Positions 4,900 to 50,652 are shown, numbered from the stretch's first letter. The stretch is 64,000 nt of DNA from an uncultured Anaeroplasmatales bacterium (GCA_964634685.1 CAZWLD010000009.1:292-64291); one strand, 5' to 3'. The notes: generated by a model from the letters alone, not told the origin. A program made the numbers and translations.

Positions 4900-5742
4900 T
4901 TAATTAATTTTGTTATTTAAATACTTACTATATTTTTCTCGTAAGCTCCAATTTAATTTTTCTTTATATTTACTTTTAATCAATTTATATTTCATTCGAA
5001 TATCTTCTTGTGAAATAGGATTATCTTCACTACAATTAGGTGACAACACTACTTTTGGATCATTTTTTTCACAATCAATTGCTAAATCAATATAGCATTC
5101 ATCATCTAATAATTCTAATTGCTCCTGGCTCAAATTAGCTTTATCAATTTCTATAACTAATCGGCATTCATTTTCATAAGCCCATCCATATAGTTTTGCA
5201 TAATAATCAAGTTTCCCATTTTGTATATCAAAAGGGAAATCATTAATAGAAGCATTTTTTAATCCATATATGGATTTCTTTAGTATTAAATTCTTATTAT
5301 CATCACCAACATATATAACATCAATCATTTCAATTCGGAATTTTCCCTTAGGAATATTTAAAACAAAAGTATCATCGCGTGAAATATTAATTTCATTTGT
5401 TTTGGTAATCAAGTCTTTTATTATAGACTTAGTAAATGTAAGCATAAAGCCCTCTTCTGAAGGATCAGAATATAACATCCACATAGCGATATTTTCACTT
5501 TTTGAATAAGTAAAAGATTTAACAAATCGAATTTTACCATCATTACACAGATTATCACGATCAATTATATCGTTCCAACTAGTTCCTCTTGTTAATCTAA
5601 TACTCGATTTTTTAAGCGTTTCAACAATTGATTTTCTATCCCCATAAAATGAATACTGGTCGTGATCTATCCCTTTTTTCTTCAATTCATTATACAAATC
5701 ATCCTTCGACTTAATACCCTTAAAAAAATCTTCTCTTGGCAT
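4900..5742 (-). CDS. DUF2971-like protein
   Basis: 280 aa. The motifs NIAMWMLYS and YGWAYENECRLVI match my memory of the DUF2971 signature (MW..Y and E.E.R). The ORF is 12 nt downstream of the 4TM gene. Confidence 0.55.
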   Translation of the reverse strand: MPREDFFKGIKSKDDLYNELKKKGIDHDQYSFYGDRKSIVETLKKSSIRLTRGTSWNDIIDRDNLCNDGKIRFVKSFTYSKSENIAMWMLYSDPSEEGFMLTFTKSIIKDLITKTNEINISRDDTFVLNIPKGKFRIEMIDVIYVGDDNKNLILKKSIYGLKNASINDFPFDIQNGKLDYYAKLYGWAYENECRLVIEIDKANLSQEQLELLDDECYIDLAIDCEKNDPKVVLSPNCSEDNPISQEDIRMKYKLIKSKYKEKLNWSLREKYSKYLNNKIN

Positions 5743-5754: not shown

Positions 5755-6474
5755 CTATTTTTGCTTAGAAGCTTTTGCTTTTTGGTTTCTTTCCTTCAAT
5801 AAAATTATTAACTCATCAATATCACTAAAAATTGAATCAATAATACCAGTTGATATATTTCTTTTTAGTAATTCACAATTTTTATAAATCTCTTCCTCTA
5901 TTTCTCCCAATGAATCATTTGATACCGGATCACTGTATTTTACTTCTTCAACTAGTAATCCTAGCTTTATACGAATAGATTCTTCTGTCACCTTATTTGC
6001 TAATGTTTCTAAATCAACTCTCAAATCCGAAATAAATTTGGTAGTATTTGGTAAAGAATTTTCAATTTTAATTATTTCCTGCTTGTAAGAATCCGTCATA
6101 ATCAAACCAATTGAAGTTAATCCAATCAAAATTGACTCAATGACAATAATAATCCAATAATCTACTAAAACAAAGGAATTAAGAGTAAATAGGGCAATGC
6201 AAAGAACCATTTGAATTAACATGTATAAATATCCTAATCGGATAATTGGCCAACCATATATTTTGCTTTTGTATGTGTTTGTCTCATTCAAACCATAATG
6301 TGCAATAAATGGTTGAGAAATGATACTCAACAAGCCACAAATCCAAAGAATCCAAAAGGAAGCCTCTGATTTATGAGCAAAAGGAATAGCAAGAGCTAAA
6401 ATATTATAAACAACTCCAATAATAATTACGATAGCAATATATTTCTTAAAATTTTTATTCATTTTCTTATCCAT
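5755..6474 (-). CDS. Four-TM membrane protein with cytoplasmic helical C-terminal domain
   Basis: 239 aa with four hydrophobic helices in aa12-130, followed by a charged helical tail (..IRIKLGLLVEEVKYSDPVSNDSLGEIEEEIYKN..). The start lies 3 nt after the SPFH gene stop; the alternative ATG at 6462 has a better RBS spacing. Confidence 0.6.
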   Translation of the reverse strand: MDKKMNKNFKKYIAIVIIIGVVYNILALAIPFAHKSEASFWILWICGLLSIISQPFIAHYGLNETNTYKSKIYGWPIIRLGYLYMLIQMVLCIALFTLNSFVLVDYWIIIVIESILIGLTSIGLIMTDSYKQEIIKIENSLPNTTKFISDLRVDLETLANKVTEESIRIKLGLLVEEVKYSDPVSNDSLGEIEEEIYKNCELLKRNISTGIIDSIFSDIDELIILLKERNQKAKASKQK

Positions 6475-6477: not shown

Positions 6478-8208
6478 TTACTCAGGCTTCTTGGTACCAC
6501 AATTGGGGCAAAAATTTGTTAATATATTATTCTGTCCACAAGAGCAATTCCAACCTTTTGACTCTTCAGGCTTCTTTGAACCGCAATTTGGGCAAAAACG
6601 TGTCATTATGTTATTTTGCCCACAAGAGCAATTCCAACCTTTTGACTCTTCCGGTTTCTTCGAACCACAATTTGGACAAAAATTAGTCACTATGTTACTT
6701 TGACCACATTGGCAATTCCAGCCAAAAGAAGATGAGCCAATTTGCGATGCTGAATTAATAATAGGATTAATTGTATCTTTTGCCATTCCCATAACACTGC
6801 CAACAGCACCCATAGTAACACCTAACCCAACAACATCTCCAAGAATGCTAGAGGCAAAACCTGCAGCACCTCCTTGAGGCATATTCTCCATCGCAGAAAG
6901 TGATACTTGTCGTCTCGTTTCATCTTGATATGTATATCCCTTCATTTGCATTTCCTGGGCCTCTGCTTGTGCTTTTAATCGATAGGCTTCAGCCTTTGCT
7001 TGAGCAGCAATTATTTCCTCCTGAGCTCCTGTTTGTGCTTCAACTACTCTTCTTTGCTGCTCAGCCAAGGCTACATTTTTCTTTATTTGCTCATTACGAA
7101 CTAATAAATACTGTTCAGCATACTGTTCCTTCATTTTTCTAAAATTTGGATCATCATCTGGTGTAACAACATGTAAAATATAAAATTCTGGTATATGCAT
7201 ACCATAATCCTCAAGAGTTTTATTGATTTCTATCTTCATAGAATTAGACAATGTTTCTAAATGCTCATCTACTTCTAAAATATTGATACTATTTTCCTTA
7301 ATATGTTTAGCCAAAATGCTCTTTACTTTTGAAATAACTAAAGCCTTAAATTTGCCAGATACAACTTTGATATCATAAGGATTATTAATTATATCTGTAT
7401 TTCTCAATTCAGAAGTAGTTCCAACTAGCTTTAATAGTAGTTTTCGAGAATTTACTACCCTAATATTGAACTCTCCATAGGCACCAAGTTCAATAGATAA
7501 CCCTGATATTGGATCAAACATTCTAACTTTAGTATCTGTTCCCCATTTAATTCCCGTTTGAGTGACCATATTAATGAAGTAAACTTCTGAGTGAAATGCA
7601 ACTTCACTATCAAATGGCAATTTATATAAGTTTTGCAATAAAGGCAATTTTTCTGTTGCTAATGTATATCTTCCTGCCCCAAAACAATCAAGCGCTTGCC
7701 CATCACGGAAAAATATTGCTTCTTGGGATTCATGGACGATTAATTGAGAGCCAAGATTAAAATCTTCAATAGGATGCTTCCATACTAATACATTATTGGG
7801 TCCCTCATATTTTATAACGCTTGCAAATCCTTTTTCCTTTATAGATTCTCTTGCAATAACCTCTTGGACATCCAAATGCTCTTTACAGAGGGGACAAACA
7901 TAGCTCTTTGCAGATTTATCTACTTGTAGTTTACATGAACAAGAAGGACAATTTATGTATACATAGTTCATCCTACTTTCCGATGTAACAATTTTATTTT
8001 TACATACAGGGCAATTTGCAGAATCTCCTTTAGCTTGATCGTACATTACCGAATTACCACAATGTGGACAATCTTTTATTGCGAAGCGATCTTTCCTAAC
8101 ATCAATGACTTTTCCACATTTACATTCTAAATATTTATTTGAAAAAAAACCAATAGATGCCTCCTGATAAGATCCGCATTTAGGACATTCAATAATAAAT
8201 TTAGCCAT
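6478..8208 (-). CDS. SPFH/band-7 domain protein with three N-terminal and three C-terminal zinc ribbons (SPFH-A, YdjI/COG4260-like)
   Basis: 576 aa. There are three N-terminal CxxC..CxxC pairs (CPKCGS..CKCGK, CPHCGN..CPVCKN, CPSCSC..CPLCKE). The SPFH core spans about aa125-370 (7099..7836). An A/Q/E-rich coiled coil follows, then the Gly-rich hydrophobic segment GGAAGFASSILGDVVGLGVTMGAVGSVMGMA, then 3 x GWNCxCGQxNIxTxFCPNCGxKKPE. Confidence 0.75.
   Translation of the reverse strand: MAKFIIECPKCGSYQEASIGFFSNKYLECKCGKVIDVRKDRFAIKDCPHCGNSVMYDQAKGDSANCPVCKNKIVTSESRMNYVYINCPSCSCKLQVDKSAKSYVCPLCKEHLDVQEVIARESIKEKGFASVIKYEGPNNVLVWKHPIEDFNLGSQLIVHESQEAIFFRDGQALDCFGAGRYTLATEKLPLLQNLYKLPFDSEVAFHSEVYFINMVTQTGIKWGTDTKVRMFDPISGLSIELGAYGEFNIRVVNSRKLLLKLVGTTSELRNTDIINNPYDIKVVSGKFKALVISKVKSILAKHIKENSINILEVDEHLETLSNSMKIEINKTLEDYGMHIPEFYILHVVTPDDDPNFRKMKEQYAEQYLLVRNEQIKKNVALAEQQRRVVEAQTGAQEEIIAAQAKAEAYRLKAQAEAQEMQMKGYTYQDETRRQVSLSAMENMPQGGAAGFASSILGDVVGLGVTMGAVGSVMGMAKDTINPIINSASQIGSSSFGWNCQCGQSNIVTNFCPNCGSKKPEESKGWNCSCGQNNIMTRFCPNCGSKKPEESKGWNCSCGQNNILTNFCPNCGTKKPE
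6482..6723 (-). repeat. Three tandem 84-bp in-frame repeats encoding zinc fingers
   Basis: The units 6482..6565, 6566..6649 and 6650..6723 are nearly identical at DNA level. Each encodes GWNC(S/Q)CGQ(N/S)NI.T.FCPNCG(S/T)KKPE(ESK). Confidence 0.9.
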
Positions 8209-10849: not shown

Positions 10850-10915
10850 ACTTGCTCACTCCTATTTCTTTTAAAACATAAAAATTAAATTGCATTAAGA
10901 TTTCTTTCTTGTCAA

Positions 10916-37741: not shown

Positions 37742-38328
37742 TTTTTCGAGAAAATATATTTAGCAGCCTCAACTACGCCAAGCTTTGACCAACCGCTTCC
37801 ATCATAAAATTCACAAACCACGTCACCATTAGGGGCCGTTTCGATGCGAGCACAGGACGTAAACTTGATGGTTTTTCCATTAATTAATAAAAGCTGCGGA
37901 GTGGTTTCTCGATCAATTCCGTAATTTGCGGCAAAGGTTTTACCATCATCACTTCCCGCATCAATTAAATATATTTTTTTAATTCCGGCTTTTTTGGCAT
38001 ATTTATTAATAGGAGTTATACTTTCTTGACAGCTTTTGCATGTTGGCTTGCTGAAGAAAACATAAAAATCCTCAGAGGAAGCCGCAAGCTTTTTGATATC
38101 ACTATAGGTCGCTTCCTCATAAACATTACCGATAGGTAAAAATGATGATGAATATTTTCTTGAAACACTATCACCCCAGAAATAGAGAGCAAAGGTTCCA
38201 ACAGCTAGTAAGCCCACTAAAATTAAACTAATATTCACAATTGTTCTTCTCTTAAGAAAAATTCTTGGAGAAGATTTTTTTCCTGAAGAATTTTCTTTAT
38301 TTTCCACGATAATCCTCCCTTGAAACAT
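37738..38328 (-). CDS. Membrane-anchored thioredoxin-like protein
   Basis: One TM helix (aa31-52) and the CxxC motif FFSKPTCKSCQE in a thioredoxin-sized domain. Its stop codon overlaps the convergent murE stop. Confidence 0.5.
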   Translation of the reverse strand: MFQGRIIVENKENSSGKKSSPRIFLKRRTIVNISLILVGLLAVGTFALYFWGDSVSRKYSSSFLPIGNVYEEATYSDIKKLAASSEDFYVFFSKPTCKSCQESITPINKYAKKAGIKKIYLIDAGSDDGKTFAANYGIDRETTPQLLLINGKTIKFTSCARIETAPNGDVVCEFYDGSGWSKLGVVEAAKYIFSKN

Positions 38329-39730
38329 TATAAACTATACTACACTTATATCCTAAGCCATCCTCACGATTAAAGGCTTCATCAAAGCTTGATGCCTCAA
38401 AATAAAGGGTAGTCTTTGATTGATTGGTTGAACAGCCATAGAAGGCTTTTTCACCAATTGTTGTGACAGTACTAGGAATATAGGCTTTTTCCAATAAAAT
38501 ACATAGCATAAAGGCCCCATTACCAATTTCTTCAACCGATGCTAAATCTACTTCCGTCAAAGAAGTCGTTAAAAAAGCTTTTTCTCCGATTTTTTTAACG
38601 GAATCAGGTATTTCAACCCGACTAAGTGAACGAGCCGCAAAGAAAGCATAATCGCTTATTTCAGTAATTCCCTCAGGAATTACATATTGATGTCCACTAC
38701 CAACATATTTTAACAAGGTATTATCTTTAATAATCACATCATCCTTGACATCTGATTTCTTAAATAGATAGCTTGTATATTTAGAAAACAAACTGTTTGT
38801 GGAATAATTATCATAATAATCATCCCCAACTAAAATCGCACCACACGAAAAGCCAGATAATTTTCCTTTCATTTTCGGCACATCGCCCAAAAACTCAACC
38901 CATTGAAGGAATGACATTGTTAAGCTGTATTGGCCAATTGTAGTAACAGACGCAGGAATCGTTAGATTCGATAAATTGGTATTATAAGCAAAATAGTCTC
39001 CGATTTCCTCTAAAGAATTAGATAATTGTAAATTCGTTAAATAAACACAATCCTTAAAGGCTGAATCGCCAATTGTAATAACGGAATTAGGTAAAACTAC
39101 ACTATAAACCTTTGAGCCGGCAAAAGCATAGGGTTCAATATTTAATAAAGTATTAGGAAGGCCAAATTCACCATCATATGAAGAAGGATATTGATAAAGA
39201 ACGGTTTGATTCTTATTATACAATAGGCCATCCATTTCTGAATAGTATTTGTTGTTTTTGTCAACAACAAAGGCTTTATTGAAGGTTAGATTTCTAAAGG
39301 CATCAGTACCAATACTTTCAACATTTTTTCCAATAATGACCTTTTCTAAAAGACTACATCCATAGAAGGCACGATCGCCAATTGTGACTACTCCACTATT
39401 TTTTACATAGGAAACCTCACGTAAAGCTCTTGATTCTTCAAAGGCTGATTCACCAATCGTCTTCACAGAGTCAGGAATAATAACCTTAACTAATTTGGAG
39501 TTTTGAAAGGCACTAGCGCCAATTTCTTCAACATAGTATCCATCAAGCTTTTCGGGAATACGAATATCATTAATATTTGTGTCCTTTAATCCTGTAACAA
39601 TGGCCACACCGTTTTTAATTGAATAATTAAAATATTCCTTGCTTGTTTCGGCCATTAGCTTTTCGCCACAAGCACATAAGGTAAGCGAAAAGAACAAAAG
39701 AAATAATAATATTTTTTTCAAATAAAACAC
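38297..39730 (-). CDS. BspA-type leucine-rich-repeat lipoprotein
   Basis: Signal peptide with a Cys lipobox (SLTLCAC), followed by many IP.SV..IG..AF repeats. Confidence 0.7.
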   Translation of the reverse strand: MFYLKKILLFLLFFSLTLCACGEKLMAETSKEYFNYSIKNGVAIVTGLKDTNINDIRIPEKLDGYYVEEIGASAFQNSKLVKVIIPDSVKTIGESAFEESRALREVSYVKNSGVVTIGDRAFYGCSLLEKVIIGKNVESIGTDAFRNLTFNKAFVVDKNNKYYSEMDGLLYNKNQTVLYQYPSSYDGEFGLPNTLLNIEPYAFAGSKVYSVVLPNSVITIGDSAFKDCVYLTNLQLSNSLEEIGDYFAYNTNLSNLTIPASVTTIGQYSLTMSFLQWVEFLGDVPKMKGKLSGFSCGAILVGDDYYDNYSTNSLFSKYTSYLFKKSDVKDDVIIKDNTLLKYVGSGHQYVIPEGITEISDYAFFAARSLSRVEIPDSVKKIGEKAFLTTSLTEVDLASVEEIGNGAFMLCILLEKAYIPSTVTTIGEKAFYGCSTNQSKTTLYFEASSFDEAFNREDGLGYKCSIVYNVSREDYRGK

Positions 39731-39754: not shown

Positions 39755-39784
39755 AAAAAAAAATACCTAGAAAAAATCTAGGTA
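39755..39784 (-). terminator. Rho-independent terminator (duplicate copy of the pyk terminator)
   Basis: Minus strand reads TACCTAGA TTTTT TCTAGGTA followed by T9. It is identical to the hairpin at 50587..50607. Confidence 0.8.
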
Positions 39785-39829
39785 TTGATTGGAAATATTA
39801 AAGAGTAACGACTTTCATTTCGTTTTCAG
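39756..39829. repeat. 74-bp perfect direct repeat, left copy (pyk 3' end fragment plus terminator)
   Basis: Identical base for base to 50579..50652. It contains the last 10 codons plus the stop of pyk (39798..39829), detached from any pyk body. Confidence 0.95.
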
Positions 39830-39852: not shown

Positions 39853-42800
39853 TTATTCAGACTTATTTTTATCATCTTTAAAAAATGCTTGGATCAATCC
39901 AATTATCATAATTACTACTGACAACGGTATGAACCAAATAATTGCAATTTTTTCTTCTATACCATCGACAACTTTATCAAAAATTTTATACTCTATATAC
40001 GCAAAAACAGGAGATAATAATAATAAAAGTACGTATATCCATTCTGCTAATTCACCATCTATATTACTATTTTGAACGAAAATTAATGCTCCTATTAAGA
40101 AAATTAAACTGTATAAATATAATATTGACCTAAGAAAAGCCGAGATTTTTACAAAGATTTCCATATAATCGTGATCATAATGCCCGTCTTTGATAAAAAC
40201 CACTATGTTCATCAAAACAATCAAAAGATAACTTGAAGCTAGAATAATTATGTCAGGTATACTAAATGATAAAACAAAGGAATCTGATGGTTTCCATGCT
40301 AAACATGTTTTAAAACATAAGTGTAATAATCCAGCTATTGGGAAAAATGAAAAAACAAACAATAATATGAAGAGAATTGAAGAAAAAATAGTTTTAATAA
40401 AATTCGAAATTGCATCATTTCTTTTTTCAACCCTAATTTTATTTTGAGTAATAATTTTTTCAGAATCAATCTCTACTCTAATCTTTTCCATTGATAGTAA
40501 ATAAGAGTTTTTATTCTTACCGCCATATATTTCAATTCTCTTTTTTAAACTCTCATATAATAAATTTAATTTGTTGATACCTTCTACATCATATGGTTTA
40601 TATCTGTAGCATTTTAAATCATATTCAAGACAATGAAACTTTTTATTACACTCTTTACAAAAGTTATCCCAAATCGCTTCATCGTCATTTTCTTTAAATA
40701 TTGAAAATAAAGAATTGGCTCTTTTCAATGATTGTAAACAATCATATTCTTCATCAATTTTTTTCTTATACCTATTATTCAATTCCTCTTTTATCTCCAC
40801 ATATGTTGAGGAAGCAATAATCTTTTCACATTCTTCAATTATGGTTTCGATTTCATCAATATTATCAACATTTCTTTCCGGTAATGACGCCAATAATTTT
40901 TGTACCTCAAAAATAGATGAAGTGTATTTCTTTTGAAAATCAACAATCTCGATTAAATCATCTATTAAGCCGCCTGCGAGGGTATTTCCTTGTCTTTGAA
41001 GTTTAACCAAACCACTCTTTATTGAGGAAATATTCATTGCCTTATCAGCTACTTTTACTTCATCCTTTGTTAAACATCTATTATCTGCTAATTCAATATA
41101 GTATTTTGCACAAATACAATCAAATGAATTTTCATTAGATTGCTGAACTATATATTGACTATACATTTTCTTAGCTGCCGAAAAGGCCTTAAACTTATGA
41201 AGATTGACCGCAAAGGTTGCTAATAAAGAATCAATTGTTGTTGGTGAATCCTTATACATATAAAAATCACTACAAGGATCTAGGCTAACAGTTTTTGGTG
41301 AATTAACCTTTAATGGCGTTTCATCTAATGAATAAACTATATATTTATTGAATAAATCAAATCCATTTAATTGTTCATCCTTATCGCCCTTTGAAGGCAC
41401 TAATAAGCCGTCTTCAGTTTTTTGATAAGCATCTTCATCTGTGATTATCGAAATTAAGAAGGTTTCAAGATACTTAGGTTTCGTAGCGGGTGGTGCATAT
41501 CTAAATAGATTAGTAAATTTTTCAATAATCTCCTTGTTATGAACAATATGAAGGTTTTCCTTATTTGAAACATCCTTTTTATCACTTAATGTATTTCCCA
41601 ACAAATTCTTCCGCAAAGCGATATACTCGTTTGGAGTATATATATTCTTTGTAACGTTAATGGAAATATAATACCATAAGGCTTCATAATCACCCTTATT
41701 TACATCGATTATTTCCTTAAGCTTTGCTTGAACAAATTCCCTTGATTTTGGCCTTAAATCTGCATTTAAAAACAAATCAAGAGCCTTTTTACGAGATTCA
41801 ATATATTTGTTAGGATCATTATTAGTAACATATTGTTTGATTAATAAATAATCACTAATTATGTCAATTATTGAATCCTTTTTTTCAACATTTTTAACTG
41901 TTTGATAGATATTAGATGCAATCTTATTAAGAATCCCTTTATCTATATATTCTATATAGGGAATAATACATATTTTCAAGACAGGCTTTTGAACTAAATG
42001 ATTATAATTGTCATTTGCCAATAGTTGAGCGATTTTTGTAATAACCTTTTTTGAATCCTCCTCAGTCGCTACTTTAAAGAATTCTTCCGCTACTTTTGGT
42101 TCTTTCGATATATTTTCTAAATTATTAAAATACGCATCAATTCCTAAAAATTCTGTATCTTTCAATAACAAATATTTTTTAGCTAAATAAGCATCCTGAT
42201 GCTCAGAAACGATTCTTTCAAGCTCAACAAAGGCATTTTTTCGATTTCTTTTGATTAATTCAAGATTATTTTCGCTTCCTTTAGGACTTCTTTCAATATC
42301 GTAAATCAAGTTATCAATCTCATCCTGAAGAGTTGAATCTGTTTTTTGATAGGTTGTAAATTTTCTGGTTGATTGAACCATACTTGTTATCTTTACATCA
42401 CTTATCTCAGCAACTTCGCTTTTGAATTCCTTTGATGTAATCTTCTTAATAGAATTATCAAAAACGTTATCCTTAATGAATTCTAGTAAATTAGTTTCAG
42501 CTCCCGGTTTTCCTAAATAGATATGTTGTAGATTTTTAAATTCGTATGGGACATCATTAGGATTCATAGTCTTTGTAACAAATACAAATGATCTCTTTTG
42601 ATTTTTATTACGATTTTGAATCTCAGGATCCATTAAATATAGATAACGCATCCATTCATTTCTTACCCACTGCCATTGAATGTTAGTCTCATTTTCGCCA
42701 ACTAAGATAAATACCTTAGCGGATTGTAATGCCGAAAAGATGATATGTTCATATTTCTTTCCCGTGAATAATCCCTGACAACGCTCAGATAAAAACACCT

Positions 42801-43428
42801 TTACTCCGGGAATTTGATCTTTAATAAAATCATACAATCCAGATGCCAACTCATAATCTTGTGTCCTAACAATTGAGCCATCTTCATTTTTGATTGGCTC
42901 GTTTGTCCTTGGGTCGATTTTAGAGACCTTTGTGGAGATAAAAATATCAAATTTATACTCACCATTCTTATAAACTTCTTCGATTTCTTTTCGAACCTTT
43001 TCAATATATTCAAATGTCTCTAAAAAGGATTCTTTTTGATAAGGCTTTGATAACTCCAAACTTTTTTTAACAAATTCACTTTCCAAAATGTTTTCAAAAT
43101 TAATATTATTTAAAGTGGGAATATTGTCATATTTCCAATTCAATTTATTATCATTTGGAGTATAACAAATACAGTTTCTTGCCAAAGCACTTAAAAACCA
43201 TACTTCTGCATCCTTCGGATTTGATTCCCTTAATTCACGTAAGTCTGATTCTGCTTCCTTGAAGCGCAAATCTTTAAGATAACGATAAATCTTTTTATAT
43301 TCATCCATCTTTTCAGCATCCATATTATGAACACCACCACAAGCCGGGCACTTATATAATTCATCAATTTTTTTCCATGTTGATGCATCAAATTCCCTCC
43401 AGCAACGTGGGCATTTTTTCTCTCCCAT
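39853..43428 (-). CDS. Zinc-ribbon / TPR-like / TIR domain protein with long helical region and C-terminal polytopic membrane domain (TIR-B)
   Basis: 1191 aa. aa5-32 form a ribbon (CPRCW..CPACGG). A TPR-like segment follows. The TIR fold spans aa157-320 (42469..42960; YKFDIFISTK ... QWQWVRNEWMRYL; Glu258 codon at 42655..42657). The last about 200 aa (39874..40476) contain about six hydrophobic helices. Confidence 0.75.
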   Translation of the reverse strand: MGEKKCPRCWREFDASTWKKIDELYKCPACGGVHNMDAEKMDEYKKIYRYLKDLRFKEAESDLRELRESNPKDAEVWFLSALARNCICYTPNDNKLNWKYDNIPTLNNINFENILESEFVKKSLELSKPYQKESFLETFEYIEKVRKEIEEVYKNGEYKFDIFISTKVSKIDPRTNEPIKNEDGSIVRTQDYELASGLYDFIKDQIPGVKVFLSERCQGLFTGKKYEHIIFSALQSAKVFILVGENETNIQWQWVRNEWMRYLYLMDPEIQNRNKNQKRSFVFVTKTMNPNDVPYEFKNLQHIYLGKPGAETNLLEFIKDNVFDNSIKKITSKEFKSEVAEISDVKITSMVQSTRKFTTYQKTDSTLQDEIDNLIYDIERSPKGSENNLELIKRNRKNAFVELERIVSEHQDAYLAKKYLLLKDTEFLGIDAYFNNLENISKEPKVAEEFFKVATEEDSKKVITKIAQLLANDNYNHLVQKPVLKICIIPYIEYIDKGILNKIASNIYQTVKNVEKKDSIIDIISDYLLIKQYVTNNDPNKYIESRKKALDLFLNADLRPKSREFVQAKLKEIIDVNKGDYEALWYYISINVTKNIYTPNEYIALRKNLLGNTLSDKKDVSNKENLHIVHNKEIIEKFTNLFRYAPPATKPKYLETFLISIITDEDAYQKTEDGLLVPSKGDKDEQLNGFDLFNKYIVYSLDETPLKVNSPKTVSLDPCSDFYMYKDSPTTIDSLLATFAVNLHKFKAFSAAKKMYSQYIVQQSNENSFDCICAKYYIELADNRCLTKDEVKVADKAMNISSIKSGLVKLQRQGNTLAGGLIDDLIEIVDFQKKYTSSIFEVQKLLASLPERNVDNIDEIETIIEECEKIIASSTYVEIKEELNNRYKKKIDEEYDCLQSLKRANSLFSIFKENDDEAIWDNFCKECNKKFHCLEYDLKCYRYKPYDVEGINKLNLLYESLKKRIEIYGGKNKNSYLLSMEKIRVEIDSEKIITQNKIRVEKRNDAISNFIKTIFSSILFILLFVFSFFPIAGLLHLCFKTCLAWKPSDSFVLSFSIPDIIILASSYLLIVLMNIVVFIKDGHYDHDYMEIFVKISAFLRSILYLYSLIFLIGALIFVQNSNIDGELAEWIYVLLLLLSPVFAYIEYKIFDKVVDGIEEKIAIIWFIPLSVVIMIIGLIQAFFKDDKNKSE

Positions 43429-43523
43429 ACCTTACAACTCCTTGCAAATAAAATGATTTAGAATTTTATTCATTAGATTCTAATTTCAATATCATTATTT
43501 TAATTAACATACAATATGAATAA

Positions 43524-45719
43524 CTAAAACATTATTTCTTCTCCTGTATTTGTAATATACCCCTTTAACTGTCCATTGGTATACAAAACAACTTCCTTTA
43601 CATTTGTATAATATCCAACTATTTCATCGTAGTTATACAAACCTCCATACCAATATGATCCTAACGATATTTTACCCATATCAAATGATTGAAATAAAAC
43701 TATTGCTTTTCCATCATCTTCAAATGCTTCCTTTCCAATTTTAGTCAAAGTTGCTGGAAGATGAACATATTTTAATGATGTATCAAGTGCAAATGCAAAG
43801 TCTCCAACTATTTCTACCTTTGATGACTCGTTATAGTCAACATATTTTAACTTCTCGCATTTGTAAAATGCATAATCACCAATATATCTTAATTGTTTTC
43901 CTAAAGTGACATCAGTTATTTCAGCAAAAGCAAATGCTTGATTACATACATACATAATATCTCTTCCATCAACTTCACTTAATTCAATACTCAATAAAGA
44001 AGATCCATTCATATACTTCATAATACCAACATAATCATCATCAGTAATAAAATATCTATAATTGCCATTTTCCTTTACTTCCTTTACATTTGTATAATAT
44101 CCAACTATTTCATCGTAGTTATACAAACCTCCATACCAATATGATCCTAAAGATATTTTACTTGTATCATATGATTGAAATAAAACTATTGCTTTTCCAT
44201 CATCTTCAAATGCTTCCTCTCCAATTTTAGTCAATGTTGCTGGTAAATGCACATATTTTAATGATGTATCACGTGCAAAGGCAAAGTCTCCAACTATTTC
44301 TACCTTTGATGACTCGCTATAGTCAACATAATTTAAATTCTTACATGAATAAAATGCATAATCACCTATATACATTAGTTCTTTACCTAAAATAACATCT
44401 GTTATATTTGAATTTTTGAATGCTTGACTACATACATACCTTACTTCTATTCCTTCAACAGTATTTAAATCAATACTCAATAATGAAGATTCATTCATAT
44501 ACTTCATAATACCAACATAATTGTCATTAGTAATAAAATATCTATAATTGTCATTTTCCTTTACTTCCTTTACATTTGTATAATATCCAACTATTTCATC
44601 GTAGTTATACAAACCTCCATACCAATATGATCCTAATGATATTTTATATGTATCATATGATTGAAATAAAACTATTGCCTTTCCATCATCTTCAAATGCT
44701 TCCTCTCCAATTTTAGTCAATGTTTCTGGAAAATGAACATATTCTAATGATGTATCAAGTGCAAATGCATAATCTCCAACAGTTTCTAGACAAGTATTTC
44801 CTAAATCCAAAGAGGTTAAGGATGATTTATAAAATGCATATGAACCAATACTAGATAAAACAGTATATCTATCTAACACCAATTTATTTATTTTTGAACC
44901 ATAAAATGCTCTTTTGCCAATCGATCTTATTGTTGCAGGTAATTTAACACTAGTGATTGCTCGGGATTCAAAAGCTTGATTTGCTATCTCATCTACCATT
45001 TTATCATTATGATATGTTGGAATAACAATGTCCGGATAAAAGCCTTCATATCCAACTACTTTATAAGTATTTGTATCTTCTTTAAATTCATATATTATTC
45101 CTTCTGTTCCTTCATCTATATAGGAGAATATTGCAGTAAAATTAGTATCTTTTTTACATAGAACATCAGTTGTGTAAATCTCACCATAGTCATCTGCCCA
45201 TCCAACAAGTATATAACCACTTTCATCATTAACTATTGGGAAATCTATTACTTGTCCATAATCATAATAATTTGTAGTAATTAGCGTCCCATCATAGTTA
45301 TAAAAATTAATTGGTATGTCCACTGGTGGAGCAAAATTAAAAGTTAGGGGACCTGTAGATCCAACTTCTTCTTTACCTAAAACTTCATTGAAGTTTTTAT
45401 ATGATATATCTACAACAAATTTGCCCGGATTAGGAGAAGATATACCAATTTCATACTCTCTATCTGATACTTTAACCCACTCTATTTTTGCGCCACAATT
45501 ATTTTCAATAATGTCAAAAGAAAAATCTTTAGTATTTGTAGTAGTATGATTTTCTTTTCCATTTATTAATAACTTAGTATATAAAAAATACACCTCATCT
45601 ATTTCGTATGAATCTTGCAAATTAGTAATACATAATTCATAATCATTTCCAAAAAGAAATCCGCATGATGCTAAAGTCAACATAGTAAAAACACAAAGCA
45701 AAAAAAATATTTTTTTCAT
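43524..45719 (-). CDS. BspA-type LRR lipoprotein with 162-aa tandem repeats
   Basis: Start moved to ATG 45719 (MKKIFFLLCVFTMLTLASC, lipobox LASC). There are LRR units and 2.5 near-identical 162-aa repeats (..DTSLKYVHLPATLTKIGEEAFEDDGKAIVLFQSYDT..YYTNVKEV..). Confidence 0.7.
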   Translation of the reverse strand: MKKIFFLLCVFTMLTLASCGFLFGNDYELCITNLQDSYEIDEVYFLYTKLLINGKENHTTTNTKDFSFDIIENNCGAKIEWVKVSDREYEIGISSPNPGKFVVDISYKNFNEVLGKEEVGSTGPLTFNFAPPVDIPINFYNYDGTLITTNYYDYGQVIDFPIVNDESGYILVGWADDYGEIYTTDVLCKKDTNFTAIFSYIDEGTEGIIYEFKEDTNTYKVVGYEGFYPDIVIPTYHNDKMVDEIANQAFESRAITSVKLPATIRSIGKRAFYGSKINKLVLDRYTVLSSIGSYAFYKSSLTSLDLGNTCLETVGDYAFALDTSLEYVHFPETLTKIGEEAFEDDGKAIVLFQSYDTYKISLGSYWYGGLYNYDEIVGYYTNVKEVKENDNYRYFITNDNYVGIMKYMNESSLLSIDLNTVEGIEVRYVCSQAFKNSNITDVILGKELMYIGDYAFYSCKNLNYVDYSESSKVEIVGDFAFARDTSLKYVHLPATLTKIGEEAFEDDGKAIVLFQSYDTSKISLGSYWYGGLYNYDEIVGYYTNVKEVKENGNYRYFITDDDYVGIMKYMNGSSLLSIELSEVDGRDIMYVCNQAFAFAEITDVTLGKQLRYIGDYAFYKCEKLKYVDYNESSKVEIVGDFAFALDTSLKYVHLPATLTKIGKEAFEDDGKAIVLFQSFDMGKISLGSYWYGGLYNYDEIVGYYTNVKEVVLYTNGQLKGYITNTGEEIMF
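43575..44800 (-). repeat. Tandem 486-bp in-frame repeats (about 2.5 copies)
   Basis: The marker string CCTTTACATTTGTATAATATCCAAC recurs at 43595, 44081 and 44567, a period of exactly 486 bp. The flanking sequence is nearly identical between copies. Confidence 0.9.
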
Positions 45720-45723
45720 AATC

Positions 45724-46315
45724 TTACAACTCCTCATTTTTCTTTTTTCTTTGAAAAAATGACTTAATGTCTTTAATTTCTAAATCTATTTTTCCATCAT
45801 CTTTTTTTATTCTTTGAACGATTAAAAATACTGTGGCAGAAATCACCAATATAGTTGAAATAACCTGAGAGGGTGATAAAAACGGCAATATTTTTCCACG
45901 ATTATCACCTCGCATAAGCTCAGCAAAGCAGCGATAAATGCCATAAACATAACTATAGACAATCCATCTTCTCTCCTTGATAAACAAAACTAATATCCAA
46001 AAAAAGATGAACATAATCCAGCCTCAATTAATTGAGACGGAATAAGCTTTGTTCAAAATCCATAAGTCATTGTTGAAATTGATTCTTCTGGATAAACCAA
46101 ACCAAAAACGGAATTGATTGGTTTTCCAAAACAACAACCCTCATAAAAACAACCAAAGCGGCCAAAGGACTAACCAATAACAAATAAAGGGATATTATTA
46201 TTTGATGTTTTTTCATAAAGCAATAAAAATATATTATACCAACAGTTATTCCTAATATGATTGTTAAGGGATATATAGCAATTTCAATATTTCCAATATT
46301 ATATTTTGGATACAT
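45724..46315 (-). pseudogene. lgt: Disrupted prolipoprotein diacylglyceryl transferase gene
   Basis: The N-terminal fragment (46067..46315) ends at a TGA. The motif IPSQLIEAGL (the Lgt HPSQLYE region) lies in a second frame at about 46015..46045. The C-terminal fragment (45724..46014, ..VYGIYRCFAELMRGDN..LSPSQVIS..) lies in a third frame. The total span of about 197 codons compares with about 270 aa for intact Lgt. Confidence 0.6.
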
Positions 46316-46362
46316 AACAAATCCATCCTTTAATAATAAATATGCATAAATAAAATCAACTA

Positions 46363-48462
46363 CTAATTTTGATAAAACCTTTTTGCATTTACTAATAATT
46401 CATTACCGCTATCAATTCTCATATTATTCCATTGTTCAGCGCTTCCTAGATAATATATTTTATTAAGATTATTACACTCAGTAAATGCTTTTTCTTCTAT
46501 TTCAATAATATTAGATGACATCGTAACAGTAGATAACTTGTCACAATTATAAAATGCATATTTTCCTATAGATGATACTTTAGAGGGAATAGTTATACTA
46601 TCCAATTGACTACAATTACAAAATGCATAATCTCCAATGCGAGCTAAATTATTTGATAGTATAACCTTTCTTAATTTGTCACAATCCTTAAATGCATCTG
46701 TATTTAACTCTTTAGCATCAGCAGGAATAATTATTGATTCAATGCCATGATACGTTGTGCTCCAAGCACCATTTTCATCAATTTCTCCGATTCCTATCGC
46801 GGTTTCCCTAATATGATAAGAGGCAAATCTATCTTCCCAATTCGCTTCGGCATATTTGCCATTAATCAAAGAATTTACCCTTGGAAATAAAGTTCGATAA
46901 AATGATCCATCAGAATAATATGCACTATAATACAACTGAAAATCACAATTAAAATTCATTAAATAATTTAATTTTATACCAGCAGAATTGACTACATAAT
47001 ATCCTAAAAATTCGGTATCATTCGATAATTTAATATCTTTAACCATTTTATTTTCTTCTTCAGAATTATCACTTTTTGTTTTTTCAAAATATATACTTGA
47101 TACTGTATATTCCTCATCATCTTTAGCAAATGTTATTTCAATATAGCTATACGATACTTTTGCCAATTCTTCCATAAGTTTCTCTTCTTCACCTGCTAGT
47201 TTAAGATAAGCATCATCATTTCCATTAACTAAAGCCTTTTCTTGATCTAAATTATTCTTCTTAATCTTTTTCAAGATTGATGAATACGAATTGCTATAAT
47301 ATTTCCACACTGTTTCTGAAGAAAAATCCTCATATGGTGATCCTAATATTTTCTTTACTTCAGAAGATGTATATCCAGGCTCAATTTTTTCCACAACGGA
47401 AATCTTAAATTTATTATTAAAATAAGAAATGGCAAAGCATCCAGCTGTTATAATAAAGATAGCTAAAATCGTAATCAACATACAAAAAGTTTTATGTAAA
47501 GCTATCCAAATCACAAAAGAAGGAGTCTTTTTTTCTGTAGCCTTATCATACTGACGTTTTTCATATTTATATATTATGAGCTGCTTTTTATTATCTTTTT
47601 CACTTTTTACACTTGTAGGCATAATTGGTTCTTGATGTGTTTCATAAAATTTATCTCTTCGGGCTTTCTCATTTTCTCTATATAGAATAATTTTATTAGC
47701 CTCATTTTTAACTAATTCCGGATATTTTTTCGCTAAGAAATGTCTAACAATGAAACTTGAAATTGATAATAAAGCAAACAATAAAGAGAAGACTATCAAT
47801 AAAATCGGACAACTACCTGCTTTAAATATGCCCATTCCTTCATCTATAGATGATATTTCACAAATAATTATTATTCCAAAAGCTAAGAAAATGGCATAAA
47901 AAATAAATGACATATATTCTAGAAAAATAAATATAGGCTGAACATTTTTACCAAATCTTATTTCTTTATTTCTAATCTTAGTGGAAAACACCGTTATACT
48001 AGAAATCAGAGCGAAAATAATTGTTACAATTGCTACTATAACTAGTGTTATCATAGCCCATTCAATTTCAGGAATTTCGCTTAACAACCCTGAATACATT
48101 TGATAGACATTACCAAGACTAATATTAGGCAAACCTTCACCCATTATTACCTCTGCTACAGGGGCTGCATAAAATGCAAATATTAATAAGCTAAAAATGC
48201 CAGATAAAATAACAGGTACATATCGTAAAATTGAATATATTAATCCAATATTAAGATTTGATGTTTTATTCTCAAGATTATTTTTACTTTTCTGTGGCTT
48301 AACCTGATTATCACCTAAAAAACAACCACATTCATTACAATACTTAACCAAATCATTTAACTTTGTTCCACAATTAGGACATATTTTTTCTTCCCATTTA
48401 GTTCCGCATTCAGGGCAAAATTTTCCTTCAAACTCTTTACCACAATTAAAACATTTTTTCAT
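46363..48462 (-). CDS. Double-zinc-ribbon / polytopic membrane / LRR protein
   Basis: The likely start is ATG 48462 (MKKCFNCGKEFEGKFCPECG..CPNCG..CNECG) after GGGAGAG. It has about 7 TM helices, an extracytoplasmic region with an SmpA/OmlA-like GYTSSEVKKILGSPYED motif, and C-terminal BspA-type LRRs. Confidence 0.65.
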   Translation of the reverse strand: MKKCFNCGKEFEGKFCPECGTKWEEKICPNCGTKLNDLVKYCNECGCFLGDNQVKPQKSKNNLENKTSNLNIGLIYSILRYVPVILSGIFSLLIFAFYAAPVAEVIMGEGLPNISLGNVYQMYSGLLSEIPEIEWAMITLVIVAIVTIIFALISSITVFSTKIRNKEIRFGKNVQPIFIFLEYMSFIFYAIFLAFGIIIICEISSIDEGMGIFKAGSCPILLIVFSLLFALLSISSFIVRHFLAKKYPELVKNEANKIILYRENEKARRDKFYETHQEPIMPTSVKSEKDNKKQLIIYKYEKRQYDKATEKKTPSFVIWIALHKTFCMLITILAIFIITAGCFAISYFNNKFKISVVEKIEPGYTSSEVKKILGSPYEDFSSETVWKYYSNSYSSILKKIKKNNLDQEKALVNGNDDAYLKLAGEEEKLMEELAKVSYSYIEITFAKDDEEYTVSSIYFEKTKSDNSEEENKMVKDIKLSNDTEFLGYYVVNSAGIKLNYLMNFNCDFQLYYSAYYSDGSFYRTLFPRVNSLINGKYAEANWEDRFASYHIRETAIGIGEIDENGAWSTTYHGIESIIIPADAKELNTDAFKDCDKLRKVILSNNLARIGDYAFCNCSQLDSITIPSKVSSIGKYAFYNCDKLSTVTMSSNIIEIEEKAFTECNNLNKIYYLGSAEQWNNMRIDSGNELLVNAKRFYQN

Positions 48463-48568
48463 ACTATCTCTCCCAATATTCAACAAAATAATTCATATAA
48501 AAACAGCACATCTTTAAAGTACTATTCTAAAATTATGCAAAATCAAAAACAATATTTATTTTCTTTGA

Positions 48569-48970
48569 TTAACCAACATATTCCGTTTTACGGTGAGCAT
48601 ATAAAACTTCAATATCCTTGATTTTACCCAAAATAATCTCAACAGTTGTCTTTTCTTGTTTGGATAATAGCATTTTTAATTCGGCTATTGCCCCCGCTAT
48701 CTTTTGATCTACCTTCAAAACACCACTTTTTGGCGATACACTTACAAAATCTGCGGTATGCTTCAATTGCTTTAATTTTTCCTTAATTGCTTCGTCCGAC
48801 TCTTCAGCTAAAGCAATTAACATACCAATTTCATTAGCATTCTTTTTAATTACATCATCGTCATCATTATTTATTTCTACTGTTGTTTTGTCATCCTTAA
48901 AATTTTTAGAGATAATAATCAAAACCACTACTAAAACAATAACAACGGGAATTAACCAATAATACCACAT
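48569..48970 (-). CDS. Single-pass membrane protein with helical cytoplasmic domain
   Basis: 133 aa: an N-terminal TM helix (WYYWLIPVVIVLVVVLIII), then a charged helical tail resembling the tail of ORF 5755..6474. It lies 12 nt downstream of the SPFH gene. Confidence 0.55.
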   Translation of the reverse strand: MWYYWLIPVVIVLVVVLIIISKNFKDDKTTVEINNDDDDVIKKNANEIGMLIALAEESDEAIKEKLKQLKHTADFVSVSPKSGVLKVDQKIAGAIAELKMLLSKQEKTTVEIILGKIKDIEVLYAHRKTEYVG

Positions 48971-48982
48971 ATAATCAACCTC

Positions 48983-50086
48983 CTAGAGCTTCTTGCCACA
49001 TTCAGGACAGAATTTAGCATCAAATTCTAATTCCTTTCCACATGAACAACGAATTTTATTACCAGGTAATCTTTCCCCACAGCCTACGCAAAATTTTGAA
49101 CCAATTTCGTATGATCTTCCGCAATGAGGACAAAATCTTCCTTCTTTAGCCGGCACAGTATTTTGATTTTTTTCAGAAATAATCTTTAATACTTCATAAT
49201 ATTTCTCTTTATCAGCTAATTCTAATTGCTTTAATAAAAGCTCTCTTTGCCATTTTCTCTCATCCTCATCTTGTTCACGAGCATAGGCCTTATCTGATAA
49301 TCTTTCAAGCTCATTCGCAATTTCTTGGGCTTCCTTTTTTTCCTTGATTTCAATTCGTCTTCTAAATAACTCATCCTCAATCGCTTCAGCTTCATCCTCT
49401 TGAATTCCTAAGCGTTCAACTGTAAATGAACATAATTTTAGACCAACATCATTAATCATTAGCTCATTCAAATACGGAAGAATACTATCGCCAATTGGTT
49501 TCATATACATTTGGATATCCAAATATGAATAAACCTTTTCACGAATTACTCTTTGTAATGCATCCGCAAAATAAGACATCAACCTTACGTCGATTCTTTC
49601 CTTCAATGAATCAATAGAATAGATTTTATCTGAACCAATGATTTCAAGATAAAACTGCTTTGGATTATCAACCTTGACCTCAAACTCTCCTCCGCCTCGA
49701 ACATGAACAACATTTTCTGTTAAAGGATCACGATAAATAACAGGGTTTTTTGTGCCCCATTCAACTTTGAATTTGACGGTCTTATTAACAAAAATTATGT
49801 CAACGTCAACTGCATCAAGCTTTGGTCTACGGAATAATCCTCCTTTTTCAACAGTCTCGAAAATTCTATATCTTCCACCATCAAGGATATCCTGCAATTT
49901 ACCATCCTTGATATATATACAAGAATGAGTTGGTGGAACAACAATCGTACATTCAGGATTTAAAATATTTCCTGAAGTCCTCCAAAAAAAGAGATCATTA
50001 TCTCCTTCAAAATGAATAATTGAAGTATTTTCATCTAAAACTGATGCATCTCCTATATCCATATTAGTTACTATTTTCTTTGCCAT
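48983..50086 (-). CDS. SPFH/band-7 domain protein with C-terminal zinc ribbons (SPFH-B, YdjI/COG4260-like)
   Basis: 367 aa: SPFH core, coiled coil, and C-terminal CPHCG..CVGCG and CSCG..CPECG ribbons. AGGAGG RBS lies 7 nt upstream. Confidence 0.75.
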   Translation of the reverse strand: MAKKIVTNMDIGDASVLDENTSIIHFEGDNDLFFWRTSGNILNPECTIVVPPTHSCIYIKDGKLQDILDGGRYRIFETVEKGGLFRRPKLDAVDVDIIFVNKTVKFKVEWGTKNPVIYRDPLTENVVHVRGGGEFEVKVDNPKQFYLEIIGSDKIYSIDSLKERIDVRLMSYFADALQRVIREKVYSYLDIQMYMKPIGDSILPYLNELMINDVGLKLCSFTVERLGIQEDEAEAIEDELFRRRIEIKEKKEAQEIANELERLSDKAYAREQDEDERKWQRELLLKQLELADKEKYYEVLKIISEKNQNTVPAKEGRFCPHCGRSYEIGSKFCVGCGERLPGNKIRCSCGKELEFDAKFCPECGKKL

Positions 50087-50110: not shown

Positions 50111-50139
50111 AGTATACTTCTTTTGTCATTTTTTGTCAA
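50111..50139 (-). promoter_or_regulatory. Near-consensus promoter of the SPFH-B gene
   Basis: Minus strand reads TTGACA (50134..50139), a 17-nt spacer, then TATACT (50111..50116), followed by the AGGAGG RBS. Confidence 0.65.
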
Positions 50140-50207
50140 TTATTACTTATCATTGCTGATAATTATAATTCTTCATTAATATAGTAAAATAACAATAGGT
50201 GAAAAAT

Positions 50208-50504
50208 ATGGTTATTGAAATTAGTGAAAGAATAAAGGAATTAAGAGAAGCGAAAAGCATGTCTCAAACAGCATTAGCTAAGGAATTGAATATATCTCGA
50301 ACTGCAGTTAATGCCTGGGAAATGGGAATTTCACTGCCATCAATGGAAAAATTAATTGAATTATCGAAAATATTTAATGTGAGTGCTGATTATTTATTAG
50401 GCATTGAAAATAAAGTTACAATAAAGCTAGATAGCCTTTCAGATGAACAAATAAATGTTATATTAGATTTAGTAAACATATTATCAAAATCAAATAATCA
50501 ATAA
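50208..50504 (+). CDS. XRE-family HTH transcriptional regulator
   Basis: The typical Cro/C1 HTH is SQTALAKELNISRTAVNAWEMG. ATG 50208 is preferred over track GTG 50199 because AGGTGA lies 6 nt upstream. The gene is divergent from SPFH-B. Confidence 0.8.
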   Translation: MVIEISERIKELREAKSMSQTALAKELNISRTAVNAWEMGISLPSMEKLIELSKIFNVSADYLLGIENKVTIKLDSLSDEQINVILDLVNILSKSNNQ

Positions 50505-50578: not shown

Positions 50579-50607
50579 AAAAAAAATACCTAGAAAAAAT
50601 CTAGGTA
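50579..50607 (-). terminator. Rho-independent terminator of pyk
   Basis: Minus strand reads TACCTAGA TTTTT TCTAGGTA followed by T8, starting 13 nt after the pyk stop. Confidence 0.85.
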
Positions 50608-50652
50608 TTGATTGGAAATATTAAAGAGTAACGACTTTCATTTCGTTTTCAG
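50579..50652. repeat. 74-bp perfect direct repeat, right copy (authentic pyk 3' end plus terminator)
   Basis: Identical to 39756..39829. Sequences immediately outside both copies are unrelated. Confidence 0.95.

Follow-up and report, generated by a model that had tools for sequence, protein, structure and literature searches.

A candidate membrane-associated TIR module built around YdjI-type SPFH proteins, in two diverged copies in an uncultured Anaeroplasmatales bacterium

Gene content of the two SPFH loci

The window analysed here, a 64,000-nucleotide (nt) stretch of DNA from an uncultured Anaeroplasmatales bacterium (GCA_964634685.1 CAZWLD010000009.1:292-64291), has a GC content of ~31% and finds its closest related loci in metagenome-assembled genomes (MAGs) labelled 'uncultured Bacilli'. 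At positions 46363-50086 it carries a cassette, all of whose genes lie on the minus strand, that encodes an SPFH-domain protein (SPFH-B), a small membrane protein (small-B) and a 707-aa zinc-ribbon membrane protein, with the gene for a large TIR protein (TIR-B) further downstream. A first-pass annotation, generated from the sequence alone, had regarded this cassette as the mirror of another SPFH cassette in the same window (locus A) and as a Bacillus subtilis Ydj-like membrane-stress module rewired to TIR effectors. The main genes of locus B are as follows.

48983..50086, minus strand: SPFH-B, 367 aa; Band_7_1 domain, long helices and a C-terminal double zinc ribbon
48569..48970, minus strand: small-B, 133 aa; one N-terminal transmembrane (TM) helix, then a ~90-aa helical tail domain
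46363..48486, minus strand: 707-aa protein; N-terminal DZR, polytopic TM region and C-terminal BspA-type leucine-rich repeats (LRR)
39853..43428, minus strand: TIR-B, 1191 aa; zinc ribbon, TPR-like region, TIR domain, long middle region and ~5 C-terminal TM helices

The SPFH gene with its C-terminal zinc ribbons and the small membrane-protein gene that follows after 12 nt were found as the first-pass annotation had described them, in both coordinates and features. SPFH-B matches Pfam Band_7_1 (PF13421, COG4260; E 2.7e-18, 66.8 bits against a gathering cut-off of 24) and has matches to DZR, Zn_Ribbon_1 and Zn_ribbon_3 at residues 316-367 (DZR E 2.5e-8); hydropathy indicated no TM helix. Its AlphaFold2 (AF2) model, with a predicted local distance difference test score (pLDDT) of 79, gave top Foldseek matches to HflK/C (3.5e-9), prohibitin (PHB, 8.9e-8), stomatin (3.7e-7) and flotillin (4.9e-6), along with erlin and QmcA. 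These matches span ~270 columns, the best of them are cage formers, and the fold of SPFH-B is predicted to be of the cage-forming kind.

Small-B had no Pfam or NCBIfam match and no convincing PADLOC match, a marginal similarity to ZorB reaching E 2e-3. Its description as a membrane protein holds for small-B itself, which has one TM helix, but does not carry over to its relatives, which are soluble proteins of 108-134 aa lacking that helix; because the relatives are soluble, the TM helix of small-B is probably a local acquisition. A gap of 82 nt separates small-B from the next gene, which does encode a double-zinc-ribbon polytopic membrane protein as had been noted (DZR E 5e-7, 5-6 TM helices), and whose product additionally ends in a previously unmentioned BspA-type LRR domain (LRR_5, E 1.5e-28). 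This LRR domain is similar to those of other LRR genes in the window, no counterpart of the 707-aa gene was found at any related locus examined, and the gene appears to be lineage-specific island cargo outside the conserved module.

Locus A consists of four genes in a tightly packed operon, separated by 3, 12 and 15 nt.

6478..8208, minus strand: SPFH-A, 576 aa; N-terminal zinc-ribbon array, Band_7_1 domain, Gly/Ala-rich segment and three tandem C-terminal zinc ribbons
5755..6474, minus strand: 4TM-A, 239 aa; four TM helices, then the tail domain
4900..5742, minus strand: DUF2971 protein (PF11185, E 9e-8); variable accessory gene of module A
2533..4884, minus strand: TIR-A, 783 aa; zinc ribbon, TPR, TIR_2, middle region and CFI-box C-terminal domain

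SPFH-A matches Band_7_1 at E 5e-37 (128 bits, cut-off 24), and TIR-A matches TIR_2 at E 2.7e-10 and CFI_box_CTERM at E 1.8e-20. The AF2 model of 4TM-A (pLDDT 82) shows four TM helices and four cytoplasmic helices, and its Foldseek comparison with the PDB returned no fold match better than E 0.58. The 4TM-A family is large, with 3,763 clusters at 50% identity that match at E<=1e-3, 797 of them at E<=1e-30; in its alignment (A1) the motifs YSDPVS...EIE...ERN are invariant, and the members scanned went unrecognised by Pfam, NCBIfam and PADLOC. Within SPFH-A, the three C-terminal zinc ribbons are encoded by three tandem 84-nt repeats at 6482-6733, with 71-87% identity to the first copy, indicating a probable internal domain triplication by tandem duplication.

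Homology between the two loci

SPFH-A and SPFH-B, which align in BLASTP at E 9e-22 with 21% identity, are old paralogues, and TIR-A and TIR-B have their first ~330 residues in common (E 5e-24, 26% identity). For the partner proteins encoded immediately downstream of the SPFH genes, pairwise BLASTP of small-B and 4TM-A gave nothing (E 39), and a word-indexed homologue search with small-B returned one near-identical (99%) cluster only, effectively small-B itself. A small-B family was therefore gathered from the genes lying directly after SPFH-B homologues on other contigs. Aligned by hhalign with the 4TM family (A1), small-B alone gave a probability of 26% (P 7e-4), four members of its family gave 48%, and eight members against 14 sequences of the 4TM family gave 89% (E 2.3e-6, 87 columns). 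The alignment pairs residues 148-234 of 4TM-A with residues 41-132 of small-B, in the same register in which the two tails had been aligned by eye.

One could suppose that the tails resemble each other as an artefact of composition, both being helical and charged, and that SPFH and TIR genes lie near one another by coincidence in variable regions, where TIR genes are common; the negative pairwise BLASTP and the 26% of the first hhalign comparison would fit such a view. The real alignment, however, scored 43.9, against 12.2±2.3 for 200 column shuffles (maximum 20.7) and 16.4 for the reversed alignment, so that the partner proteins emerge from formal alignment as related. Furthermore, the partners from two additional loci (L018 and L019), held out of both tail profiles, match the hidden Markov models (HMMs) of both families, at E 1e-6 and 3e-7 for the 4TM HMM in a database of 1,132 open reading frames (ORFs).

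The tails of small-B and 4TM-A are therefore homologous. The earlier observation that an SPFH gene with zinc ribbons followed by a tail-bearing partner occurs twice in 64 kb is thus borne out by homology of the SPFH, tail and TIR families alike, and the mirror between the loci is real for these three protein families. We interpret the window as holding two diverged paralogous copies, A (2533-8208) and B (39853-50086), of one conserved module.

Gene neighbourhood across relatives

We sampled neighbourhoods from both ends, starting from 4TM-A homologues and from SPFH-B homologues, and each start recovered the partner. In the resulting 15 non-redundant loci with enough flank, which include both loci of the window, a tail-domain gene directly follows the SPFH gene in every case (15/15), and a zinc-ribbon (ZnR) protein is encoded nearby, again in 15/15, with a TIR domain in 13. 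SPFH identity across the sampled relatives ranges from 22 to 65% (29-65% for SPFH-B homologues).

The loci fall into two types. All six type-A loci (window, L003, L006, L017, L020, L022) have the order SPFH, 4TM, ZnR protein, and four of these six have a TIR domain. At L006 (GCA_045598145.1) the order is Band_7_1, 4TM, DUF2971, TPR-TIR, and L020, at 22% SPFH identity, has a compact SPFH, 4TM, TPR-TIR arrangement beside GmrSD_N and AAA_15 genes. L003 has two TIR-A homologues, in the order TPR-TIR-WD40, SIR2_2, ZnR-Band_7_1, 4TM, TPR-TIR; the DUF2971 gene of locus A is present at L006 and absent from L003 and L020. Just downstream of the second TIR gene of L003, a stand-alone 56-aa ORF (9204-9377) matches the 4TM-family HMM at E 2e-11; it is probably a second, truncated copy of the adaptor domain, corresponding to the C-terminal half of the tail domain.

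In type B (window, L007, L009, L011, L013, L015, L016, L018, L019), the SPFH gene is followed by a small tail protein in 9/9 loci, and a ZnR-TPR-TIR gene lies on the same strand within ~5 kb, also in 9/9. The TIR gene is directly upstream in L009 and L019 and a few genes downstream in L011, L013, L015, L016 and L018, and L007 reads SPFH, small protein, trypsin, TIR-B homologue, the last split into two ORFs (E 8e-150 and 4.5e-55).

The two loci without TIR are both of type A. L017 (4711-9193) has a downstream gene for a 669-aa protein with an N-terminal zinc ribbon, and L022, on the Butyrivibrio fibrisolvens plasmid pNP21 (6658-10053), has one for a 464-aa protein with ZnR, TPR and coiled coil. 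Because both retain the N-terminal zinc ribbon, and pNP21 also the TPR, in the absence of TIR, they point to probable effector swapping on a constant ZnR(-TPR) N-terminus. The 4TM gene of pNP21 is frameshifted into two ORFs (7883-8212 and 8212-8649), of which RefSeq annotates only the second.

This conservation also bears on the idea of coincidental proximity, since one and the same TIR subfamily recurs in 13 of the 15 loci, always on the same strand, across SPFH proteins of 22-65% identity. Such recurrence is incompatible with chance and supports a functional link between SPFH and TIR; together with the shuffle and held-out results for the tails, it makes coincidence combined with a compositional artefact extremely improbable.

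Features of the TIR proteins

In an alignment of TIR-protein N-termini (A7), the motifs CxxC..CxxC, (Y/F)D(V/I)F and WVxNEW are invariant, and TIR-B retains them as CxxC..CxxC, FDIFIS and WVRNEW. The invariant residues are D157, F159, K163 and, within WVxNEW, E239, the last (WVKNEW) being present in 10/10 sequences. Searched against the PDB, the family profile matched the Toll-like receptor (TLR) TIR domain 7ylf (E 3e-5) and the bacterial TIR domain 4lzp (E 0.004), with E239 aligned to the Glu of 'WCQYE' in 7ylf, a position which we take from the SARM1, plant and ThsB TIR literature to be the catalytic one. TIR-B itself had no direct Pfam TIR match and is homologous to TIR-A across the whole N-terminus. 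The TIR domain thus keeps its Glu at the catalytic position and may have NAD+ cleavage or cyclase activity.

At their C-termini, type-B TIR proteins have ~5-10 predicted TM segments and several type-A proteins have one; TIR-A has a CFI-box domain in place of a C-terminal TM region. Most TIR proteins of the module are accordingly predicted to be membrane-anchored at the C-terminus.

Island context and mobility

Locus B lies between two identical 74-nt direct repeats, 10,823 nt apart, for which zero matches are expected in shuffles. The features of this region, beyond the genes given above, are listed here.

50579..50652: right 74-nt direct repeat, comprising the last 32 nt of pyk and its terminator hairpin
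50199..50504, plus strand: Xre-type HTH_3 (helix-turn-helix) regulator (Pfam HTH_3, E 8.7e-18), divergent from SPFH-B and within the island
50111..50139, minus strand: promoter-like site TTGACA-17-TATACT, 25 nt upstream of SPFH-B
45724..46315, minus strand: two small membrane ORFs (45724-46014 and 46067-46315) between two LRR genes
43524..45737, minus strand: LRR lipoprotein, 737 aa (BspA-type LRR_5, E 4e-57); island cargo
39756..39829: left 74-nt direct repeat, just downstream of TIR-B

The repeats mark the bounds of an island that was inserted at the pyk 3' end, and the 10.7 kb between them holds the HTH_3 gene, SPFH-B, small-B, the 707-aa gene, an lgt remnant, the LRR lipoprotein gene and TIR-B. 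We found no integrase gene within this 10.7-kb island. Among related modules, a tyrosine integrase gene adjoins L018 and a resolvase gene L011, and L022 is plasmid-borne; neighbouring genes include SIR2/AbiH-like, GmrSD_N, AAA_15, AbiEii, BrxL-like and toxin-antitoxin genes.

The TIR linkage proposed in the first-pass annotation stands for locus A, where the genes are co-operonic, and for locus B as far as the shared strand and the shared island are concerned; TIR-B starts 5.1 kb downstream of small-B and 2.9 kb past 46363. Part of the intervening sequence is degenerate: the ORF at 45724-46014 matches positions 171-239 of the 240 of PF01790 (LGT) at E 1.7e-5, and appears to be a pseudogene fragment of prolipoprotein diacylglyceryl transferase (lgt) that lacks the N-terminal part. 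A comparison with L007, the closest SPFH-B homologue on a long contig, implies a putative ancestral operon of SPFH, small protein, (trypsin) and TIR. At the position equivalent to that in L007, the window has no trypsin gene and has LRR genes instead; the 707-aa DZR/LRR gene, the lgt remnant and the LRR lipoprotein gene would then be later insertions into the ancestral locus-B operon.

The promoter-like site upstream of SPFH-B, with 11/12 consensus matches, was the best in the region in what was a consensus scan only. An SPFH-B homologue of 438 aa (P0027) has an HTH_3 domain fused to its SPFH N-terminus; because of this fusion and the divergent HTH_3 gene in the window, an HTH protein suggests itself as a functional partner or regulator of the module.

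Elsewhere in the window, at least five BspA-type LRR_5 proteins are encoded in 64 kb, including those at 9746-12025, 38297-39730, 43524-45737 and 46363-48486, and several are lipoproteins. This surface-protein family has expanded locally and has spread into island B as well. The LRR lipoprotein gene at 43524-45737 contains 486-nt internal repeats (repeat families D1 and D2). Positions 8602-9612, immediately upstream of locus A, encode a KAP/ATPase_2-like P-loop protein with a weak PADLOC mad8 match (E 4e-5), a gene not conserved beside other type-A modules, and positions 28214-30748 encode an 844-aa UvrD-like helicase with GajB-like PADLOC matches (E 1e-9). Both are possible further defence genes.

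Relation to the B. subtilis pspA-ydjGHI operon

With Scholz et al. 2021 (PMC8581546) and Ravi et al. 2024 (PMC11237479) as references for the pspA-ydjG-ydjH-ydjI operon, we took a B. subtilis-type locus from a metagenome contig by means of the ydjI primer printed in PMC8581546. This outgroup locus encodes PspA, YdjG, YdjH and YdjI and no TIR protein. Its YdjI matches Band_7_1 (E 8e-43, 146.9 bits) and has a C-terminal zinc ribbon, and BLASTP relates it to SPFH-A at E 9e-17 and to SPFH-B at E 2e-12, so the two SPFH proteins of the window are YdjI homologues of the same architecture.

The order at 46363-50086, that of an SPFH gene, a small membrane-protein gene and a zinc-ribbon membrane-protein gene, would suit a true ydjG-ydjH-ydjI cassette in which SPFH-B is YdjI, small-B is YdjH and the 707-aa protein is YdjG, with TIR-B loosely associated. 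The resemblance ends with the SPFH protein. YdjH is a TPM-domain protein (TPM_phosphatase, PF04536, E 3e-23), whereas neither small-B nor 4TM-A has a TPM match or BLASTP similarity to YdjH, and no YdjH homologue was found among the 130 window ORFs of >=50 aa; both proteins were therefore rejected as YdjH. YdjG consists of two TFIIB-like zinc ribbons, a YpeB/NTF2-like domain and a C-terminal TM helix, and the 707-aa protein was rejected as YdjG because it has only CxxC motifs in common with it and ends in BspA-type LRR. Moreover, no SPFH-B relative has a 707-like neighbour, all of them have a TIR-B or TIR-A homologue, and at L007 the order is SPFH, small protein, trypsin, TIR-B homologue. We consider a true Ydj cassette very improbable, and what lies here is a YdjI-family SPFH protein in a different operon.

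The first-pass annotation was right that no pspA is present: a phmmer search with PspA against the same 130 window ORFs gave no match at E<=10, and none was seen in related loci. Its suggestion that a Ydj module has been rewired to TIR survives in part, in that the SPFH-TIR pairing recurs in relatives, but the gene-for-gene mapping fails, and descent from a rewired Ydj module is a conjectural evolutionary history.

There is a further similarity in the zinc ribbons. In the ZnR-TPR-TIR family, the very start of the protein can be aligned with the first of the two YdjG ribbons (hhalign 92%, E 7e-7, 41 columns; phmmer E 2.4e-4). This match is short and Cys-dominated, and we treat it as a possible lead only. 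In an environmental metagenome, L021 (8001-10386) has a distant Band_7_1 gene followed by the gene for a 412-aa protein with two YdjG-like zinc ribbons, with neither a tail protein nor a TIR protein at the locus. This suggests that Band_7_1 SPFH proteins are generally paired with partners that have N-terminal zinc ribbons, and not just in the Ydj and TIR contexts.

Extended type-B operons and the envelope-stress alternative

Most type-B relatives have extra genes between the tail protein and TIR, namely those for a tandem pair of all-helical paralogues (~195 aa each) and for a classic AAA ATPase (PF00004, E 6e-39), often joined by a trypsin-like protease and a BrxL-like ATPase. The AAA ATPase is closest in the PDB to p97/Cdc48, and not specifically to Vps4. 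The helical paralogue pairs lie at the following positions.

L009, 11420-12606: helical paralogue pair
L011, 12209-13373: helical paralogue pair
L013, 11467-12619: helical paralogue pair
L015, 11509-12667: helical paralogue pair
L018, 2793-3955: helical paralogue pair
L019, 9257-10475: helical paralogue pair

One of the two ~195-aa paralogue families gave sub-threshold, near full-length matches to Pfam Snf7 in three of five members (E 0.04-0.6). The hhalign comparisons of the ~195-aa proteins with PspA and with a hand-entered yeast Snf7 sequence were negative, as was a profile search against the PDB. A relationship of these proteins to the endosomal sorting complex required for transport III (ESCRT-III) is conjectural; if true, it would be remarkable given the precedent of YdjI and PspA. 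The C-terminus of the Snf7-matching family resembles the C-terminal 'DDELAALKAKM' motif of PspA.

These operons bear on a reading in which the module has a housekeeping role in envelope stress or membrane repair, like that of PspA-YdjGHI, with TIR as a signalling or scaffold component and not an antiviral suicide effector. Both SPFH proteins are YdjI homologues of the same architecture, PspA is brought to the membrane by YdjI, which relies on membrane partners for this (Scholz et al. 2021, PMC8581546), the TIR proteins open with a YdjG-like zinc ribbon, and the extended operons add the helical proteins, with their Snf7 matches, and an AAA ATPase. Yet the window holds no homologue of PspA or of TPM/YdjH, the partners are unrelated to YdjH, and the ESCRT-III idea failed in the comparisons with PspA and the hand-entered Snf7. 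The module is also patchy, island- or plasmid-borne and duplicated, with swappable effectors, a pattern typical of conflict systems and not of a core stress response. On this evidence we regard an envelope-stress role as a serious contender that is nonetheless unlikely.

Proposed mechanism and significance

The module as we see it has three core parts. The first is an SPFH protein of the YdjI type that is soluble, ends in zinc ribbons and has a predicted ring- or cage-forming fold; the second, a partner encoded immediately downstream that carries the ~90-aa helical tail and whose TM helices number four in type A and one in small-B, most type-B relatives having none; and the third, a large protein with an N-terminal zinc ribbon, TPR and usually TIR, which is usually predicted to be membrane-anchored at its C-terminus. 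We read this as most likely a membrane-associated TIR immune module, with a probability of roughly 55%, and infer the mechanism of defence as follows. The SPFH oligomer would scaffold or sequester the TIR protein, with the tail-domain partner, the TIR protein's own TM region or both keeping the oligomer at the membrane. A trigger, perhaps perturbation of the membrane by phage or recognition of a phage protein by the TPR region, would release or cluster the TIR domains, which once active would consume NAD+ or make a nucleotide signal, such that the infected cell is arrested. The arrangement would parallel HflK/C-FtsH and YdjI-PspA, in which an SPFH protein controls a client; here that client would be a TIR immune effector.

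Several observations weigh against such an immune role or its details. Most type-B partners have no TM helix, so that a membrane-anchor role for the partner is not general, and TIR domains can also act as scaffolds instead of NADases. The sample of neighbourhoods is small and biased to gut and rumen Bacillota MAGs. In locus B, 5 kb of unrelated genes with the lgt remnant intervene between small-B and TIR-B, because of which co-regulation there is uncertain and this copy may be decaying. No system model of PADLOC-DB v2.0.0 (2023) matched any of the ten proteins scanned, which included the cassettes of both loci, and a scan of IMG/VR viral contigs with SPFH-B and SPFH-A returned no close relative; a phage GenBank search gave one weak match.

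A broader view would hold this to be a widespread Bacillota immune family, in which an SPFH cage and a tail-domain adaptor survey membrane integrity and gate a membrane-anchored TIR NADase, and whose extended versions would also bring in an AAA unfoldase of the p97 type, a protease resembling trypsin and, possibly, ESCRT-III-like proteins. We put this forward tentatively, as a possible extension that is on balance doubtful; if true, TIR immunity would be directly connected to the ancient membrane-damage machinery of SPFH proteins and PspA.

TIR domains are common to innate immunity in bacteria, plants and animals, and what controls their off and on states is a central question; SPFH proteins are universal membrane scaffolds whose functions in bacteria are largely obscure. 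A conserved SPFH-TIR operon would therefore offer a tractable system in which to ask whether membrane perturbation serves as a bacterial immune trigger and what role YdjI-type SPFH proteins play. Further loci may be found with three markers, namely the tail-domain HMM, the ZnR-TPR N-terminus and Band_7_1.

Comparison with known systems

Like pspA-ydjGHI, the module has a YdjI-homologous SPFH protein with Band_7_1, a C-terminal zinc ribbon and no TM helix, whose gene stands beside those for a potentially membrane-anchored partner and for a protein that opens with a YdjG-like zinc ribbon; in both, a soluble SPFH protein likely tethers a client to the membrane. Unlike pspA-ydjGHI, it has no PspA, an unrelated helical tail-domain partner in place of a TPM-type YdjH, and none of the YdjG body (NTF2-like domain and TM helix). 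The putative client is a TPR-TIR protein, and the module is island- or plasmid-borne and duplicated, unlike a sigma-W stress operon.

With the SPFH cage systems (HflK/C-FtsH; QmcA-YbbJ and other SPFH-NfeD pairs; flotillin-YuaF), the module has in common the predicted fold of SPFH-B and a small partner gene immediately downstream. It differs in that its SPFH protein has no TM anchor and that a TIR protein, in place of a protease, is the putative client. In contrast to the NfeD partners, the partner here is predicted to be all-helical, has no NfeD Pfam match and no PDB fold match, and is not an oligonucleotide/oligosaccharide-binding (OB) fold.

With the TIR anti-phage systems (Thoeris ThsB/ThsA, TIR-STING and TIR-NLR), the module shares a TIR_2 domain with a conserved Glu, a defence-island or mobile context and the exchange of effector domains, but unlike Thoeris it has no ThsA-type (SIR2/SLOG or Macro) partner in the window. 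NCBIfam matched the TIR domain only to Thoeris type III ThcB4, at 20 bits against a cut-off of 220, and among the marginal PADLOC matches the SPFH-A zinc-ribbon array resembled the zinc-finger region of HEC-08 (E 1e-3). Literature searches that combined SPFH or Band-7 with TIR or anti-phage defence, in which subscription papers were incompletely covered, returned no description of such a system, and the 'Tir' of phage shock protein (PSP) papers is the unrelated CesT/Tir chaperone. SPFH and tail-domain genes are thus part of none of the described TIR systems found in these searches. Taken together, these comparisons set apart a distinct and conserved module on mobile DNA, composed of SPFH, tail-domain and ZnR-TPR-effector proteins: a candidate new TIR defence module, apparently undescribed, and a putative new SPFH-based partner module of TIR-effector conflict systems.

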